DNA from: an uncultured Candidatus Saccharibacteria bacterium | GTDB lineage: Bacteria > Patescibacteriota > Minisyncoccia > Phycocordibacterales > UBA9973 | Assembly (NCBI GenBank): GCA_964450735.1 | Contig: CAYVDC010000002.1 | Location: 703-64,702 of the forward strand | Direction: 5' to 3' | Length of the DNA stretch: 64,000 bases | In this document: positions 16,134 to 35,042 of the stretch, one piece after another | Numbering within the stretch: the first letter of the stretch is position 1 | Layout: every line of letters begins with the position of its first letter | Program-made: the position numbers and the translations under genes | The notes under the pieces: generated by a model | What the model saw: only the letters and a program-made list of their open reading frames with translations | Told to the model about the DNA's origin: nothing | Database searches by the model: none

Positions 16134-16796
16134 TTATTTCTTCTTTCCAGCTGGCTTCTTTTTCGCAACAACTTTCGCTGCTGGTTTCTTTTCTGCCTTC
16201 TTTTCTACTTTCTTTGATTCAGGCTTTGCCTTGGCAATCTCAGCTTTTGGAGCTTCTGTTTTGACTACTGGCTTTGCTGGTCCTTCTGCAGGAATTCGTC
16301 CGTTTGCACGAACCAAATCCATCAAACGATCGAGCTTAGAGTTTGCTTTTGCAAGCTCGCTCTTAAGCTCTTCGATGCGAGGATCCTTTGCTTCACGCAT
16401 TGGAGCGCTCTCAGGCTTTCGGTATGAATCCTGTCGATCTCCACGGTCATCTCGTCCGCCGTATTCTTTCTTTGGATATGCTGCGCCTGGAGTTGCGCCT
16501 TTCATGACACCAAAACAATCGCTGCAATATACTGGCTTCTCGCCATTTGGACGAAATGGCACTTCACATGATTTGCCGCAGTTAGCACAAGTTGCCTTGT
16601 GCATTTCAACACGTCGATCATCGCCACCTTTGCTAAATTTACCGCCAAAGTTTCCGCCCCGGCTAAAGCTTGGTCGGCTGTCGAAATCACGTTTTGGAAA
16701 ACGATCTCCTCCGCCTCTATTATCTCTATCTCCGTACCCTCCTGATTTTTTGAAATCTTTCATAATACTCGTAGCTAGTTCTGATATGCTTGACAT
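16134..16796 (-). CDS. Zinc-ribbon protein with an RGG/Arg-Gly-rich N-terminus and a Lys/Ala-rich histone-H1-like C-terminal tail
   Basis: The central motif is CANCGKSCEVPFRPNGEKPVYCSDCF (CxxC-x17-CxxC). The N-terminus has RGGGDRFPKRDFDSRPSFSRGGNFGG. The C-terminus reads KKVEKKAEKKPAAKVVAKKKPAGKKK. Confidence 0.55.
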   Translation of the reverse strand: MSSISELATSIMKDFKKSGGYGDRDNRGGGDRFPKRDFDSRPSFSRGGNFGGKFSKGGDDRRVEMHKATCANCGKSCEVPFRPNGEKPVYCSDCFGVMKGATPGAAYPKKEYGGRDDRGDRQDSYRKPESAPMREAKDPRIEELKSELAKANSKLDRLMDLVRANGRIPAEGPAKPVVKTEAPKAEIAKAKPESKKVEKKAEKKPAAKVVAKKKPAGKKK

Positions 16797-16854
16797 CCTA
16801 GCATTTTATTGCTGAAAAAGCTAGCTCCCCCATTAATTCATATATAAACTACCA

Positions 16855-27768: not shown

Positions 27769-28602
27769 TTACTCTTTGTTTTTACGAAGCGCTTCAAAAC
27801 TTAGCATTGCTCTTTTTCGGTCTACTCCCCATCGATAGCCGCTGATCTCGCCGGTGGACTTGAGCACTCGATGGCATGGGATAATATAGCCGACAGGATT
27901 GCTGCCGACCGCGCCGCCAACAATGCGCGATGCTTTTTTATTGCCAATCTTTTGCGCAATTTGTCCGTATGTTGTTATGCTTCCTTCTGGAATTGAAAGT
28001 AATGCTTCCCAAACCTTGAGTTGCAGATTTGTTCCATGGAGATGAAGTTTGATTTTTGTCTTTGGCGTAATTCCTTTGAAGTACGATCTGATCGCTCTGT
28101 GTGATGCCTCTTGTTTTTCAATGAACTTTGCATTTGAGAACCGGGATTTGAGATCGATGACCGCTTCTTTTTTTGAATCGGCAAAAAGCACATTGCACAC
28201 ACCGCGCGGCGTTGAAGCGACCAAGCAAAATCCGAATCGTGTTTCAAATGTCGAATACTTGATTATCAAATTCGCTCCGTTGTTTTGATAATCCCCTGGC
28301 GTCATTGCTTCAATGTCGACAAAGAGATCATGTAGGCGTCCGGAACTACTGAGTCCAGCTTTGACTGATGTTCGAACGATTTTATTTTCCTTCAACAATT
28401 CTTTTGAATATTGCAGGCTCAAATATCGTCCGAATTGCTTCGGAGTAACACCTACCCAATTCGTAAAAACTTTTTGAAGATGTCCGGGGCTGACTCGAAG
28501 TGAATGAGCAAGCTCCTCGAGAGAATGCGAATTGAGCTTGTTAGTGACAATATGCTCAATGACCATTTTGATCGATTCATAGTGGTTGGTCGACTGTTTC
28601 AT
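27769..28602 (-). CDS. Ada-like fusion of an AraC-family HTH domain and a methylated-DNA-protein-cysteine methyltransferase (MGMT) domain
   Basis: The N-terminal AraC HTH is LEELAHSLRVSPGHLQKVFTNWVGVTPKQF. The C-terminal MGMT active site is IPCHRV, with SYGQIA upstream. Confidence 0.8.
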   Translation of the reverse strand: MKQSTNHYESIKMVIEHIVTNKLNSHSLEELAHSLRVSPGHLQKVFTNWVGVTPKQFGRYLSLQYSKELLKENKIVRTSVKAGLSSSGRLHDLFVDIEAMTPGDYQNNGANLIIKYSTFETRFGFCLVASTPRGVCNVLFADSKKEAVIDLKSRFSNAKFIEKQEASHRAIRSYFKGITPKTKIKLHLHGTNLQLKVWEALLSIPEGSITTYGQIAQKIGNKKASRIVGGAVGSNPVGYIIPCHRVLKSTGEISGYRWGVDRKRAMLSFEALRKNKE

Positions 28603-28709: not shown

Positions 28710-30890
28710 ATGAAAGAAAACTTCGGGAATGAGGCGCTCGGCAGATCGAAACATTTGGGAAATATGGAGATAGACGAGGAAGCAAAATTCCGTCTAGCAG
28801 CCCAAAAAATACAAAAAGGTGATTTATCAAGCTTCGCCGAATTCAGGGGATTTTTTAAAAGCGAGATAGCAGCTGAAACAAAAAAATTTGCGGAGAATCT
28901 TGATCCAATCGCGCAAGAAGAATTAGAGGCTCAAATAGACACTGAGCTCATGCTTTTTGTAAAAAATCTTGGAACGATGCGCGAACCATACATGTACAGC
29001 GTAACCAAAGAAGCGCTCCCTGGAATCATAGACAATGCGGTTCTTGCCCTTGGCAATCAAGGACAAAGAGAAGAAACTAGCCAAGAAAGAAAGTATGACT
29101 GGAAAGAGGCAGAGCTTATCGCCGAAGCTGATTTGCTTACTAGAAAATTCGAGCAATCGATCAACGCAGAAGGATTAGTAGAAAATATCGGCAACAATCT
29201 TGGGCGTAAACCCAATGGCAAATATATTTCATCATCAAAAGCATTCGATATTCTTCCCTATCTATTTGGTGAAGAAAACATGCAGTCTATCAGCAAAACA
29301 ACCGAATTATCGATTGCCCGCTTACACAATATATTCGCCGTATTCCGTGACCGTATCCGCGAAGCGCTCAGCAAAACGACGATGGCGCGACATGACCTTG
29401 ATACTGATGTCGCGCTTGAACATTTCAAAAAAAAGCTGAGACAAGAATTGAGCGATTTTCCAACTAGCTTTGAAGAGGACGAGGATGGCAGCTCGATGAG
29501 CGAAATGGATTCAGATGAGCACATTTCCTCAGAAGGAAAAGCAAGTTCCAAACAGCCAATAGAAAAAAAAGTAAGACGTGAACTAACCTTTTCAGAAACA
29601 AAAGAACGAATTCGATTGCTCGGCATTGGCAACGAGGTTAAATATAAATATTCCTACAAGCAATATGATCTGCCCAAAGAAAGCACGCTTGCATCCTTCG
29701 CAGGGACACCAAAGTATCCAGACGGTTCGATAGACTGGAAAACATTCTTTACTGAAACTCCATGGACATACGAAGATCTTAGAAAGGACATACTTTCAAA
29801 GAATATTGTTTCCGTCGCAGGTTATAGAACTAACGCTCCGTCACATAACTGGCCAGAGTGGAAATTCGTAACAGCAATGCCTGAATTTCCTAAAACTGAG
29901 GATAGCAAGCCGAACACTAATGCTTTTTTAGAGGTGAAACCAAAAGAGACTGTTACTTGGCCGACGTGGACAGCAGAAACATTGATTGCTGATATCAAGG
30001 CAAAGGGCGTTACATCAGAATCTGAATTCAAAAAAGCTCGAAGCAACGAGGGGTACTTCTGGCCAAATGCCATTACTTCAAAGAAATTCCCTGGATTACC
30101 TTTTTATCCCAACAACAGCGTTGATTGGAAAAAAGTCTTCACTGGGGAATCATGGACATACGAAGATTTGCATAAAGACATTCTTACTAAATTGAAGAAC
30201 CCAAGCAAGGATAAATACGAGTCCGCGCGCGAAAAGTATAATTGGCCGACACTGCCTACATTGATTGCCATGGAAGGGTTTCCGAAGATCGAAGAAAAAA
30301 ATGACTGGGATACATTTTACGAGAGGAAGAATTTTACTATCGACGAATTGAAAAGCGAGGTGGCAGAAAAAGGAGTCACCAATCAAAAAGGATACTTGGA
30401 CAACATGGAAAAATACGGATGGCCGTTGTTCTACAAAGTGGAAGGATTTCCTCGATACAAAGAGGGACCAGGCAATTGGTACGCGTTTTTCAATAACAAC
30501 GAAAACGTAACATTGGACAAAATGAAATCCGAAATGCTCACCTACAATATCAAGTCACACCTTGATTACGATCGCCTCTCCGAGGAACACAACTGGCCGC
30601 CTTTGGCCGTCCTGCGCAATATGCCCGACTTCCCAAAGACCCAGCAGGGCAAGAATGACTGGGATGCATTTTATGGAATTGCAAAAAAAGTAGCGCCAGA
30701 AACCTTGTTTGTAACCAAAGAAGGAATTTCATACGAAAAACTGAAGAGCGAGGTTCAACATCTGGGAATCAAAACCATTAGTTCGTACATAAAAGCAGCT
30801 GCGAATAGAGGCTGGCCATCTCTCGACGAACTCGGCGAACTAGAGGAAGTGAAAAAAATGAAAAGCTGGAATGAGTTTTTTGGAAGATAG
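28710..30890 (+). CDS. Large cytoplasmic tandem-repeat protein of unknown function (six to seven ~58-aa repeats)
   Basis: 726 aa. After residue 300 come repeats of the form DWxxFF...(W/F)TYEDLxKDI...(N/G)WPxLxxLxxMPEFPK. I could place them in no family. Confidence 0.6.
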   Translation: MKENFGNEALGRSKHLGNMEIDEEAKFRLAAQKIQKGDLSSFAEFRGFFKSEIAAETKKFAENLDPIAQEELEAQIDTELMLFVKNLGTMREPYMYSVTKEALPGIIDNAVLALGNQGQREETSQERKYDWKEAELIAEADLLTRKFEQSINAEGLVENIGNNLGRKPNGKYISSSKAFDILPYLFGEENMQSISKTTELSIARLHNIFAVFRDRIREALSKTTMARHDLDTDVALEHFKKKLRQELSDFPTSFEEDEDGSSMSEMDSDEHISSEGKASSKQPIEKKVRRELTFSETKERIRLLGIGNEVKYKYSYKQYDLPKESTLASFAGTPKYPDGSIDWKTFFTETPWTYEDLRKDILSKNIVSVAGYRTNAPSHNWPEWKFVTAMPEFPKTEDSKPNTNAFLEVKPKETVTWPTWTAETLIADIKAKGVTSESEFKKARSNEGYFWPNAITSKKFPGLPFYPNNSVDWKKVFTGESWTYEDLHKDILTKLKNPSKDKYESAREKYNWPTLPTLIAMEGFPKIEEKNDWDTFYERKNFTIDELKSEVAEKGVTNQKGYLDNMEKYGWPLFYKVEGFPRYKEGPGNWYAFFNNNENVTLDKMKSEMLTYNIKSHLDYDRLSEEHNWPPLAVLRNMPDFPKTQQGKNDWDAFYGIAKKVAPETLFVTKEGISYEKLKSEVQHLGIKTISSYIKAAANRGWPSLDELGELEEVKKMKSWNEFFGR

Positions 30891-33275: not shown

Positions 33276-33302
33276 AATTTCAGAACAAAATAAGCAGCAC
33301 TA

Positions 33303-35042
33303 TTACGCCACCTCTTTTTGGTAGCATCCTTCGCAATAAATCACCTCGCTCCGTAGAGGAGAATACGAAGTTTCAAATTCGTTCGGGCACGATCCAGTAT
33401 GGTCGTGGTTTTCCTGGCTGCACATACATGCACGATGCCAAAGTTTTCGCGGATTGCGCTTGCTCATGCGCGCCTGGTGACGGCATTCAAAATCCTGATG
33501 CGGAATTGGTAAATGCATTTTTCGGTAAAATTCTAGTTCTGCCTGGATGAGACGGAAATTTTTTCCGCAGGTTTCACAAATCAGGGTTTCTTTGAGTATG
33601 CCATCTGTAACCTCTTCGATCGTTTGCGGCATATCAGCGCTTTTGATGGTTTCTTTGCCAAATGTTCCAGTATTCATTTCTCGCCAATTGAATCCGCGCT
33701 CAGTGGCGACTTCTTTGGAGAGCGGGTAAAAATCCTGCGAAAGGGCTTCGTTGTAGGTAAATGGCGCAATGTCCGCTGGGAAAAATTGCCCATAGCGAGG
33801 ATCGTCTTTCATCTCGGCGTCTATTTTTGCTTTGAGCTCTTGGTATTCTTCTTTTGAATATTCCCGGTTCAAGATCATATAGTTCCCTTTGCGGATAGCG
33901 ATACAACCAAGGGCATTTGAAAGATGATAGCAGTTTTCGCAGTACTCCACTTCATTACAGTAAAAGACAAAAGCTGAATTTTTGAGCTTGCTTCCCTCGA
34001 GAGCACCCATAATATTGTATCCAAACGATGGTTTGTAGTAATAGTTATTGCAATCCATGCTGTCGATCGGGCTTTCAGTATCAGTCATGTATGAGCAGTT
34101 TTTTGCATCATAAGTATCAAACAGCAAAACACCATCATGGCAGTTATGGATATAGTCCCCTGTCACATTATTGCACTTTGTCTGAGATGAAAACTTTTTA
34201 AGTGCCTGGCTTTTTATTTTCTCAAATTCTTTTTTAGCTGCTTCAATGCTTTCATGGCTTGAGAGTATTTCTTTTTTCTTTTCCTCAAACTCTTTTTTAG
34301 AATACTGTACGTTGTAAATGGAGTTCGACATATGCCGTCCGTTGGTGCAGAAAATACAATTCTGACTGTCGCGCATGTTGTAGCAGAACAACAGTTCGCT
34401 CGAAGACTGACATTGCTCAGAGAACATGCACTTGAAGCAATTTCGTGAGTCGAGACATTCATAGCAAAGCTCTGACTCGTGCAAAAATGCACAGTCTACA
34501 CACTGTTTGTCTCGCTGGAGCAATCGCCCATACAAGCAATCTTCATTGTAATCAGCAGCAAAAATAAGATAGCAGTCTTTGTTTTCCGCCGAACCGTTGG
34601 TGTACTCGCTTCGTACGTTATTGAAAGCCATCAAGCTCATACGAGGAACGGAATGTTGCAGTTCTTTGTATTGGTCAAAAAATGACTTGAAAAAATCATA
34701 CTCTCTTCCGAAGCTTTTTGGATCCCAATTGTCGCTCCACCAGCAGGTATGACAATACACTGTGTATGGGGATTCGGGCGAATACACGGTGATCATGTCT
34801 GTTTTGCAGAGATCACACGGGCGTTTGTAAAAAGTTCGCTCATTTCGAAAAACTAGGCGATGCATCATGCGGCAATCCGGACAAAAGTTCGGAAATGGCA
34901 CATTCATTTGGGAGTAAAATATCTGATCTTCAGTGCGGATCGTGAAGTCTTTCTTGCAATCCTGGCAGTTTTTAGTCTGGGGTTCCATGTGCGGATTATA
35001 GCAAATATAGTAGAGAGAAACTTGTGTCTCTATTCGATCCAA
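33303..35042 (-). CDS. Cys-rich protein with multiple zinc-ribbon motifs flanking a central NCxxC-repeat region
   Basis: 579 aa. The N-terminus has CQDCKKDF...FYSQMNVPFPNFCPDCR and the C-terminus has CETCGKNF...FYRKMHLPIPHQDFECRHQAR, both matching the probable-zinc-ribbon pattern CxxCxxxF..FY..P.P..CxxCR. CDLCK-x17-CHTC is also present, and the centre holds (NCxxC...C...C) repeats. Confidence 0.6.
   Translation of the reverse strand: MDRIETQVSLYYICYNPHMEPQTKNCQDCKKDFTIRTEDQIFYSQMNVPFPNFCPDCRMMHRLVFRNERTFYKRPCDLCKTDMITVYSPESPYTVYCHTCWWSDNWDPKSFGREYDFFKSFFDQYKELQHSVPRMSLMAFNNVRSEYTNGSAENKDCYLIFAADYNEDCLYGRLLQRDKQCVDCAFLHESELCYECLDSRNCFKCMFSEQCQSSSELLFCYNMRDSQNCIFCTNGRHMSNSIYNVQYSKKEFEEKKKEILSSHESIEAAKKEFEKIKSQALKKFSSQTKCNNVTGDYIHNCHDGVLLFDTYDAKNCSYMTDTESPIDSMDCNNYYYKPSFGYNIMGALEGSKLKNSAFVFYCNEVEYCENCYHLSNALGCIAIRKGNYMILNREYSKEEYQELKAKIDAEMKDDPRYGQFFPADIAPFTYNEALSQDFYPLSKEVATERGFNWREMNTGTFGKETIKSADMPQTIEEVTDGILKETLICETCGKNFRLIQAELEFYRKMHLPIPHQDFECRHQARMSKRNPRKLWHRACMCSQENHDHTGSCPNEFETSYSPLRSEVIYCEGCYQKEVA

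Follow-up and report, generated by a model that had tools for sequence, protein, structure and literature searches.

Duplicated zinc-finger heads and a predicted twin β-helix in an uncharacterised cysteine-rich protein family of Patescibacteria

The Tenebrio antifreeze protein is a β-helix built from 12-residue coils of the form TCTxSxxCxxAx, in which four small residues of each coil point inward. Other β-solenoids, such as the pentapeptide-repeat proteins MfpA and Qnr and the bactofilins, are intracellular, non-enzymatic proteins with an acidic surface that bind macromolecules. The Csp copper-storage proteins and the metallothioneins are Cys-rich, direct their thiols into the protein lumen, and use Cys residues as conserved functional ligands. 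Here we describe a Cys-rich protein that recalls each of these systems in part and that comes from the Patescibacteria, ultra-small bacteria with roughly 1-Mb genomes in which many functions are missing and a large share of the conserved genes is unexplained. The gene lies at positions 33303-34988 (minus strand) of a stretch of 64,000 nucleotides, hereafter the window, from contig CAYVDC010000002.1 of assembly GCA_964450735.1. It encodes a protein of 561 residues, the numbering of which is used throughout, with a double zinc-finger module of probable metal-binding function at each end and a central core that we read, from its repeat pattern and from structure prediction, as a narrow β-helix in two units.

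An earlier note on this DNA, made from the letters alone, had singled out the same gene as encoding a possibly metal-rich protein with zinc ribbons at its termini and a Cys-repeat core. The protein contains 36 Cys, or 6.4% of its residues, the highest proportion among the 34 open reading frames (ORFs) of the window that are at least 200 residues long (median 0.78%). As the note had stated, there is neither a transmembrane helix nor a signal peptide, the maximum Kyte-Doolittle score of any 19-mer being 0.6, and a soluble protein is strongly indicated. The details of the core were read less well: the central region contains 20 Cys and not about 30, and NCxxC, which had been described as its repeating unit, occurs there just twice, at residues 183 and 210.

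Zinc-finger modules at both termini

The N-terminal 85 residues (34734-34988, minus strand) and the C-terminal 96 residues (33306-33593, minus strand) are homologous to one another, with a BLASTP E value of 5e-13 and an hhalign probability of 99.8% (E 2.9e-28). Each of these Z modules consists of a zf_Tbcl-type treble-clef finger and a second finger with CxxC-x17-CxxC spacing. The N-terminal motif is CxxCxxxF-x8-FY-x5-PxP-x2-CxxCR, with residues C8xxC11...F15...F24Y25...P31xP33..C36xxC39R, and the C-terminal one is CxxCxxxF-x8-FY-x5-PxP-x5-CR, in which one Cys of the second knuckle is gone and D499 is found instead. The motif had been noted as identical at both ends; the same module is indeed present at both, while its x9 spacing and a full set of C-terminal Cys are not. 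His497 accompanies Asp499 in 21/21 sequences of the subfamily to which the window protein belongs, and because this His always goes with the loss of Cys at 499, the third zinc site is suggested to be of the C3H type. The second N-terminal finger, noted before as an additional CDLCK-x17-CHTC ribbon, is found at C58xxC61-x17-C79xxC82.

Database profiles recognize these domains at or near their thresholds. Of 59 orthologues, 46 match the PF13451 model at the first finger (E ≤ 0.1); in the window protein the match covers residues 5-41 and scores 18.0 bits, under the gathering cut-off of 24 bits, and one paralogue rises above it with 25.7 bits. The last finger is matched by PF23477 in 26 of the 59 orthologues at the same limit, with no match listed for the window protein itself, and the C-terminal finger of a paralogue (L083:9488-11233) reaches 29.2 bits against a cut-off of 27 bits. 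Scores for TIGR04272 are 27.3-27.6, below its cut-off of 36 bits. In the structure prediction, the N-terminal module has a predicted local distance difference test (pLDDT) score of 91-96, and the model of its first finger can be overlaid on those of phage "putative zinc-ribbon domain proteins" in BFVD with a root-mean-square deviation of 0.4-0.5 Å over 40-41 residues, at 36-38% identity. Taken with the PF13451 matches, this superposition supports the earlier assignment of the terminal domains to the "probable zinc-ribbon / treble clef" family. Matches to LIM domains do not amount to membership of that family (PF00412 in only 4 of 59 members, at E ≥ 0.002; LIM domains of CRP in the PDB at E 0.23-0.84).

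The cysteines of the fingers vary as sets. In an alignment of 176 family members of 33-100% identity, C8, C11, C36 and C39 are conserved at 93-98%, and C521, C534, C552 and C555 at ∼100%. C61, C79 and C82 are jointly present in 116 sequences and jointly absent in the remaining 60 (phi = 1.0), and C474 covaries with C502 (phi = 0.93). The finger cysteines behave as metal sites in this alignment, and the two duplicated heads probably hold four structural zinc sites. A domain with CxxC-x17-CxxC spacing binds zinc in small proteins of Methanosarcina mazei, as measured by inductively coupled plasma mass spectrometry (PMC12704099); apart from this result, we found no literature specific to the family, to PF13451, to PF23477 or to Cys-rich paralogues of Parcubacteria. 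Conserved Arg residues come after each treble clef, each head has an Arg-rich helix face that is likewise conserved (R-x3-R-x3-RN-x-R), and the net charge of the C-terminal finger averages +5.

No further protein with a Z module or with the repeat unit of the core was found within the window, which holds one copy of the family. A 223-codon stop-to-stop frame at 16137-16805 (minus strand) gives a weak match (E 0.005) to residues 70-98 of the hidden Markov model of the C-terminal zinc-finger module, and may be an unrelated small zinc finger.

Architecture of the central core

Between the heads, all on the minus strand, a connector comes first (residues 86-123, 34620-34733). It is rich in Trp, Asp and Phe, with the consensus WWSDxWDxxxYGxDxDFxRPFFEQFxELxxxVPR, its columns are highly conserved, and the model places helices at 90-93 and 103-113 with pLDDT 91-95; the connector probably caps the first β-helix at its N-terminal end. 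The first repeat unit, S1 (residues 124-228, 34305-34619), consists of about eight 12-residue coils with Cys, Ser or Leu at coil positions 1, 4, 7 and 10, and closes with the motif CxxCxNxRxxxxxIxNxxYSK. The second unit, S2 (residues 265-395, 33804-34196), is a less regular β-helical unit that ends in GCIAIRKGNYMILNREYSKEEY and a helix at 379-393; nowhere is the protein more conserved than at residues 361-382. S1 and S2 are themselves a duplication, as residues ∼131-242 align with 278-390 at an hhalign probability of 99.9% (E 6e-35), and in each unit a series of short repeats finishes with ...C..C.NLRNK.Y.I.N.QYSKEEY, after which a helix follows.

A Lys/Glu-rich helical hairpin (residues 229-264, 34197-34304) is inserted between the two units, with helices at 231-241 and 245-261 (pLDDT 85-91). 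No other segment varies as much across the family, and its information content, 1.56 bits, is the lowest. The earlier note had seen this segment and had placed it after the core, whereas it separates the core's halves. After S2 comes an acidic, aromatic-rich segment without Cys (residues 396-465, 33594-33803; consensus GxFFPxxxSPFxYNETxAxxxxPLxKExAxxxGxxW), in which N413 is invariant and G400, F403, P404, Y412, P422, G432 and W435 are nearly so; its net charge across the family is -5.8, and a profile search with residues 376-468 found no relative in the PDB. Beyond the Cys that serve as presumed zinc ligands, the residues invariant throughout the family are P115, G277, N374, N413, E484 and R503.

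The regularity of S1 is pronounced. Its profile of Cys/Ser frequency has a period of 3 and a super-period of 12, with an autocorrelation of +0.72 at lags 3 and 12 and of about -0.3 at all off-phase lags, across eight consecutive 12-mers. S2 shows a weaker version of this pattern, and control regions are without it. An AlphaFold2 (AF2) model based on a diverse alignment (pLDDT 84, predicted template modelling score (pTM) 0.85; pLDDT 57-78 in the core) places β-bridges at residues 140, 152, 164, 176, 188, 200, 212 and 224, that is, every 12 residues, and a hydrophobic/aromatic stripe runs along coil positions 5-6. Because the 3/12 period fits inward-facing packing and the predicted bridges recur at the same interval, we conclude that the core is best read as a narrow β-helix, the lumen of which would be filled by a ladder of Cys, Ser and Leu. 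A first AF2 model, made from a shallow alignment (pLDDT 69.5), had given Foldseek matches to left-handed β-helices of the γ-carbonic anhydrase and LpxA kind at E ≥ 0.35, which we distrusted; the better model returned no PDB match at all, and its BFVD matches are confined to the fingers.

The pattern of the core Cys differs from that of the fingers. Most core positions are 23-82% conserved and are replaced singly by Ser, Leu, Val or Ile, the number of core Cys per homologue ranges from 8 to 26, and their covariation is weak (phi ≤ 0.48), mostly at offsets of 12, 9 or 3. Since these residues are exchanged individually and covary weakly, unlike those of the zinc sites, most of them look like packing residues, and the core is probably not a string of obligate metal centres, as the phrase "metal-rich" had implied. 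Ligand Cys that are kept and lost as sets, the trait of metallothioneins, are not seen here. No iron-sulfur motif of the CxxCxxCxxxC(P) or CxxxCxxC type is present, and no Fer4 or Radical_SAM match appears in Pfam for 59 members at E ≤ 0.1; a match of this kind, which the earlier note had named as evidence that would overturn its reading, was therefore looked for by both routes and not found. The core serves as a caution that not every Cys-rich repeat is a metal centre.

Searches with the whole protein bear out the view that no characterised protein has this architecture: Pfam, NCBIfam, PADLOC, PDB sequences and Foldseek-PDB yielded none. Pfam, NCBIfam and phmmer searches of the PDB gave weak zinc-finger matches alone, and profile searches of the PDB, at full length and with the core alone, added only an insignificant match to 1EZG. 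No enzyme family is matched in Pfam or NCBIfam, including ERCC4, Fer4 and Radical_SAM. The JGI/IMG label "ERCC4-type nuclease" on the database protein P0113 is probably an annotation artefact: PF02732 does not match the window protein at E ≤ 1, nor is it among the top families for the 59 members, P0113 included.

Phage sequences were also searched. The profile phrog_15341 matches the core weakly in 4 of 5 divergent members (E 5e-4 to 2e-3; residues 162-384 of the window protein, ∼33837-34505), which could reflect remote homology to the S units or a bias of Cys-rich composition; the link was not substantiated by tblastn against 50,697 phage records, which gave nothing significant. PADLOC returned 0 matches for 5 diverse family members, and a scan of IMG/VR with orthologue patterns found no full homologue. 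At the end of a 6-kb viral contig (IMGVR_UViG_3300025030_000857; locus L086, 5853-5963), by phage-like genes, a 37-residue stretch, YSEECQNCLNVFGCEGLRKKQYCILNKQYTKEEYEEI, matches the end motif of the S unit; this may represent a fragment, a chimera or the first part of a phage homologue.

Gene, distribution and neighbourhood

The ORF is uninterrupted from 33303 to 35042 (minus strand), as had been noted, and would encode 579 residues if counted from TTG at 35042. We prefer ATG 34988, because P0001, a database protein of 561 residues that is 100% identical to the window protein, and virtually all homologues, with lengths of 550-561 residues, begin at its equivalent; the TTG start is unlikely, and the 579-residue reading is probably 18 codons too long. 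Upstream of this ATG the sequence, read directly, contains no Shine-Dalgarno sequence, and an extended -10-like box, TGCTATAAT (34995-35003, minus strand), ends 6 nt before it. A box so close to the start, with no Shine-Dalgarno sequence, suggests that the mRNA may be leaderless or nearly so. A TATAAT- or TATTAT-like box near the ATG, again without a Shine-Dalgarno sequence, is found in many orthologues (for example, upstream in L029, L042 and L051). Of 65 upstream regions, 12-13 share the motif TATAAAGTTAAT, against a maximum of 5 in shuffled sequence, and no Rfam element or riboswitch was found upstream of the gene. At the other end, a consensus scan gives a terminator-like hairpin with a T-run that overlaps the stop codon (33292-33313, minus strand); such sites are no more numerous than in shuffled sequence, and the hairpin is weak evidence.

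The family is large. At least 1870 matches occur among 90%-identity clusters, and 3625 among 50%-identity representatives, 1437 of them with E < 1e-30; most of the 150 matches listed for the latter are full length. Wherever the source name is informative, it belongs to the Patescibacteria (Paceibacterota, Nomura-, Staskawicz-, Kerfeld-, Brenner- and Jorgensenbacteria). Several third-party annotation records of metagenome-assembled genomes (MAGs; L006-L013, L022 and others) bear the title "uncultured Candidatus Saccharibacteria bacterium", and a contig of 3.4 kb goes under "Azospirillum sp."; since their orthologues are 60-79% identical to the window protein, these titles are probably coarse labels or mis-binning and not the true distribution. 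Compared over the same genome pairs, orthologues share a mean identity of 67%; the values for PNPase, XerC and LysM-M23 are 69%, 71% and 45%. Judged by this comparison and by the size of the family, the gene is genuine and strongly constrained, and the window orthologue changes as slowly as its housekeeping neighbours.

In lineages further removed from that of the window, in Jorgensen-, Staskawicz-, Brenner- and Kerfeldbacteria MAGs, full-length paralogues of the family stand in tandem on one strand, 2 to 7-8 to an array, with 27-50% identity within an array (L083 74-13722; L085 522-12881; L080 4340-13727; L068 590-14154; also L081, L078, L079, L082 and L072). Each member of an array falls into a separate 50%-identity cluster, and several clusters recur between lineages. 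A second paralogue type, like P0281, is a conserved orthogroup of its own; a single MAG can contain both it and the window type (WCS86_02150 with WCS86_01865; WCW54_01750 with WCW54_04070), once with the two on one contig. As judged from these sequences, the multigene family is ancient, its members have diverged in function, and purifying selection acts on them; it is not a fast-evolving conflict family. That a family without a curated model or a solved relative, as far as our searches found, is kept at housekeeping-level conservation, and takes up >13 kb of tandem paralogues in some lineages, is what makes it of interest.

The window gene stands alone, convergent with a short-chain dehydrogenase/reductase gene and divergent from an ORF of 188 residues without a Pfam match. 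No conserved operon partner is present in the window, and TrmB-like, CutA1 and ATPase neighbours are found in subsets of the other genomes. In a survey of 80 species-level genomes or loci, the neighbour encountered most often is a TrmB-like regulator (PF01978), located upstream, divergent and within 1 kb in ∼40 of the 80, and also inside the Kerfeldbacteria array. This gene encodes ∼260 residues, is ∼66% conserved (for example, L042 5056-5838, minus strand; L062 5068-5853, minus; L078 3830-4606, plus) and is absent from the window; its product may control the gene or act as a partner. PNPase, CCA-adding enzyme, ExoIII, XerC, ComM, YraN and a DksA-type zinc finger also recur nearby, consistent with a nucleic-acid-rich syntenic block and not with an operon. 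A CutA1 gene (PF03091) lies within the arrays of four loci from three lineages (L083 1890-2195; L085 4031-5851; L068 4062-5920; L080 2151-3933), in three of them paired with a soluble TraD/TrwB/HerA-like P-loop ATPase of ∼490 residues, and a Zip transporter is found ∼3 kb away in two loci. Elsewhere in the window, an ORF of 726 residues without a Pfam match (28710-30890, plus strand) is conserved in the sister contig L001, and an ordinary Ada-like fusion of an AraC-type helix-turn-helix and the DNA-binding domain of 6-O-methylguanine-DNA methyltransferase lies at 27769-28602 (minus strand).

Possible roles and comparison with known systems

The family-wide invariants lack a catalytic signature, and a non-enzymatic binding or scaffold role is for this reason the most likely. 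In the scheme that we put forward tentatively, and hold to be possible as a whole, the zinc-finger heads, each with its Arg-rich helix face, would bind a macromolecule, nucleic acid being the likeliest, the twin β-helix and the variable helical hairpin would form a rigid spacer and a specificity surface, and the ancient paralogues would address different targets. Nucleic acid is favoured because of the conserved Arg by the treble clefs, the +5 charge of the C-terminal finger and the nucleic-acid-rich neighbourhood. The "regulatory or nucleic-acid-binding" role proposed earlier is plausible.

Other roles can be weighed against this scheme. The protein could act on proteins alone, as a binding or structural element such as an assembly platform, a bactofilin-like filament or a chaperone-like adaptor, with the zinc fingers acting as LIM-like modules for contacts between proteins. 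The weak LIM likeness of the last finger, the stripe at coil positions 5-6, the high pTM, which suggests a single compact body, and the several conserved paralogues per genome, which would suit assembly subunits, all speak for it; however, there is no significant match to bactofilins, LIM or any structural family, no conserved adjacent partner gene, and the Arg-rich helices are left unexplained, and we consider it unlikely. A role in metal storage or buffering, in which the thiol-lined lumen of the β-helix would take up Zn, Cu(I) or Fe ions in a column, in analogy to the Csp bundles or metallothionein, draws on the abundance of Cys, with up to four same-facing Cys per coil in Cys-rich homologues, and on the nearby Zip transporters and the "divalent ion tolerance" gene CutA1. 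The latter is itself of unclear function, though, iron-sulfur motifs are lacking, and the conserved non-Cys surface residues and overall length are atypical of metallothionein-like proteins. The core Cys, unlike those of the genuine zinc sites, are replaceable one by one, and we consider this role quite improbable.

A diversified effector or anti-phage sensor, exported or deployed by the associated ATPase, would account for the tandem arrays of divergent paralogues, for the ATPase gene inside three of them, and perhaps for the weak phrog_15341 matches and the fragment at the end of the viral contig. Yet paralogue types that are ancient and shared across lineages, together with a housekeeping rate of change, are the opposite of arms-race turnover, and neither a PADLOC match, a secretion signal nor a phage or IMG/VR homologue was found in the searches described above, so that such a role seems very unlikely. 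Finally, the many Cys and the nuclease label on P0113 might point to an unrecognised enzyme or redox protein, thiol-based or iron-sulfur; with neither an enzyme family nor an iron-sulfur motif found, and with invariants that form no plausible catalytic constellation, we give this reading hardly any credence.

A broader version of the nucleic-acid or protein-binding scheme may also be considered, though we regard it as doubtful. The family would then be a protein class specific to Patescibacteria, with a domain not seen before, a cytoplasmic, Cys/Ser-laddered 12-residue β-helix that is duplicated and capped by duplicated double zinc fingers, and with ancient paralogues, ∼8 per streamlined genome at most, that each recognize another nucleic-acid or protein target; in a variant of it, the thiol-lined lumen would carry a column of metal ions. 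If true, such a class would be a modular recognition scaffold standing in for conventional factors that these reduced genomes lack. The architecture as defined here, with four probable zinc sites and two β-helices like that of the Tenebrio molitor antifreeze protein, raises questions of metal stoichiometry, nucleic-acid binding and structure, and confirmation of the binding role would yield a new recognition scaffold as well as a marker gene family for lineages of the Paceibacteria type.

Among known systems, zf_Tbcl (PF13451) shares the CxxC-x3-F...FY...PxP..CxxCR motif with the window protein, and both knuckles are present at the N-terminus; its known members, however, are short and stand-alone, whereas here the finger is fused to a second one and duplicated at both ends of a 561-residue protein. 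The likeness to TIGR04272 and PF23477 (zf_Tbcl_2) lies in the exact spacing of C58xxC61-x17-C79xxC82, but the window protein is under both cut-offs and the archaeal proteins are small, with a single domain. Pentapeptide-repeat proteins and bactofilins differ in repeat length and motif and have no zinc fingers, and no homology to them is detectable and no Pfam match is found. From Csp proteins and metallothioneins the family is set apart by core Cys that are freely exchanged for Ser, Leu or Val. The T. molitor antifreeze protein (PF02420; 1EZG) resembles the core in its 12-residue coils and small inward residues at each third position. Indeed, 1EZG is the only recurring PDB match to the core, although an insignificant one (E 0.77-9.6), and PF02420 has a best E of 0.063, in 6 of 59 members; both recur because the packing scheme of the coil is the same. 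In contrast to the antifreeze protein, the window protein has no TxT ice-binding ladder (two isolated TxT, none in S1) and no signal peptide, and its Cys covary at i+12, i+9 and i+3 and not at the i+6 expected of disulfides within a coil. Coil geometry is the only feature shared, and the likeness looks like a convergence of packing and not membership of that family. What is new is an uncharacterised, lineage-specific family assembled from building blocks, the zinc finger and the β-solenoid, that are already known.

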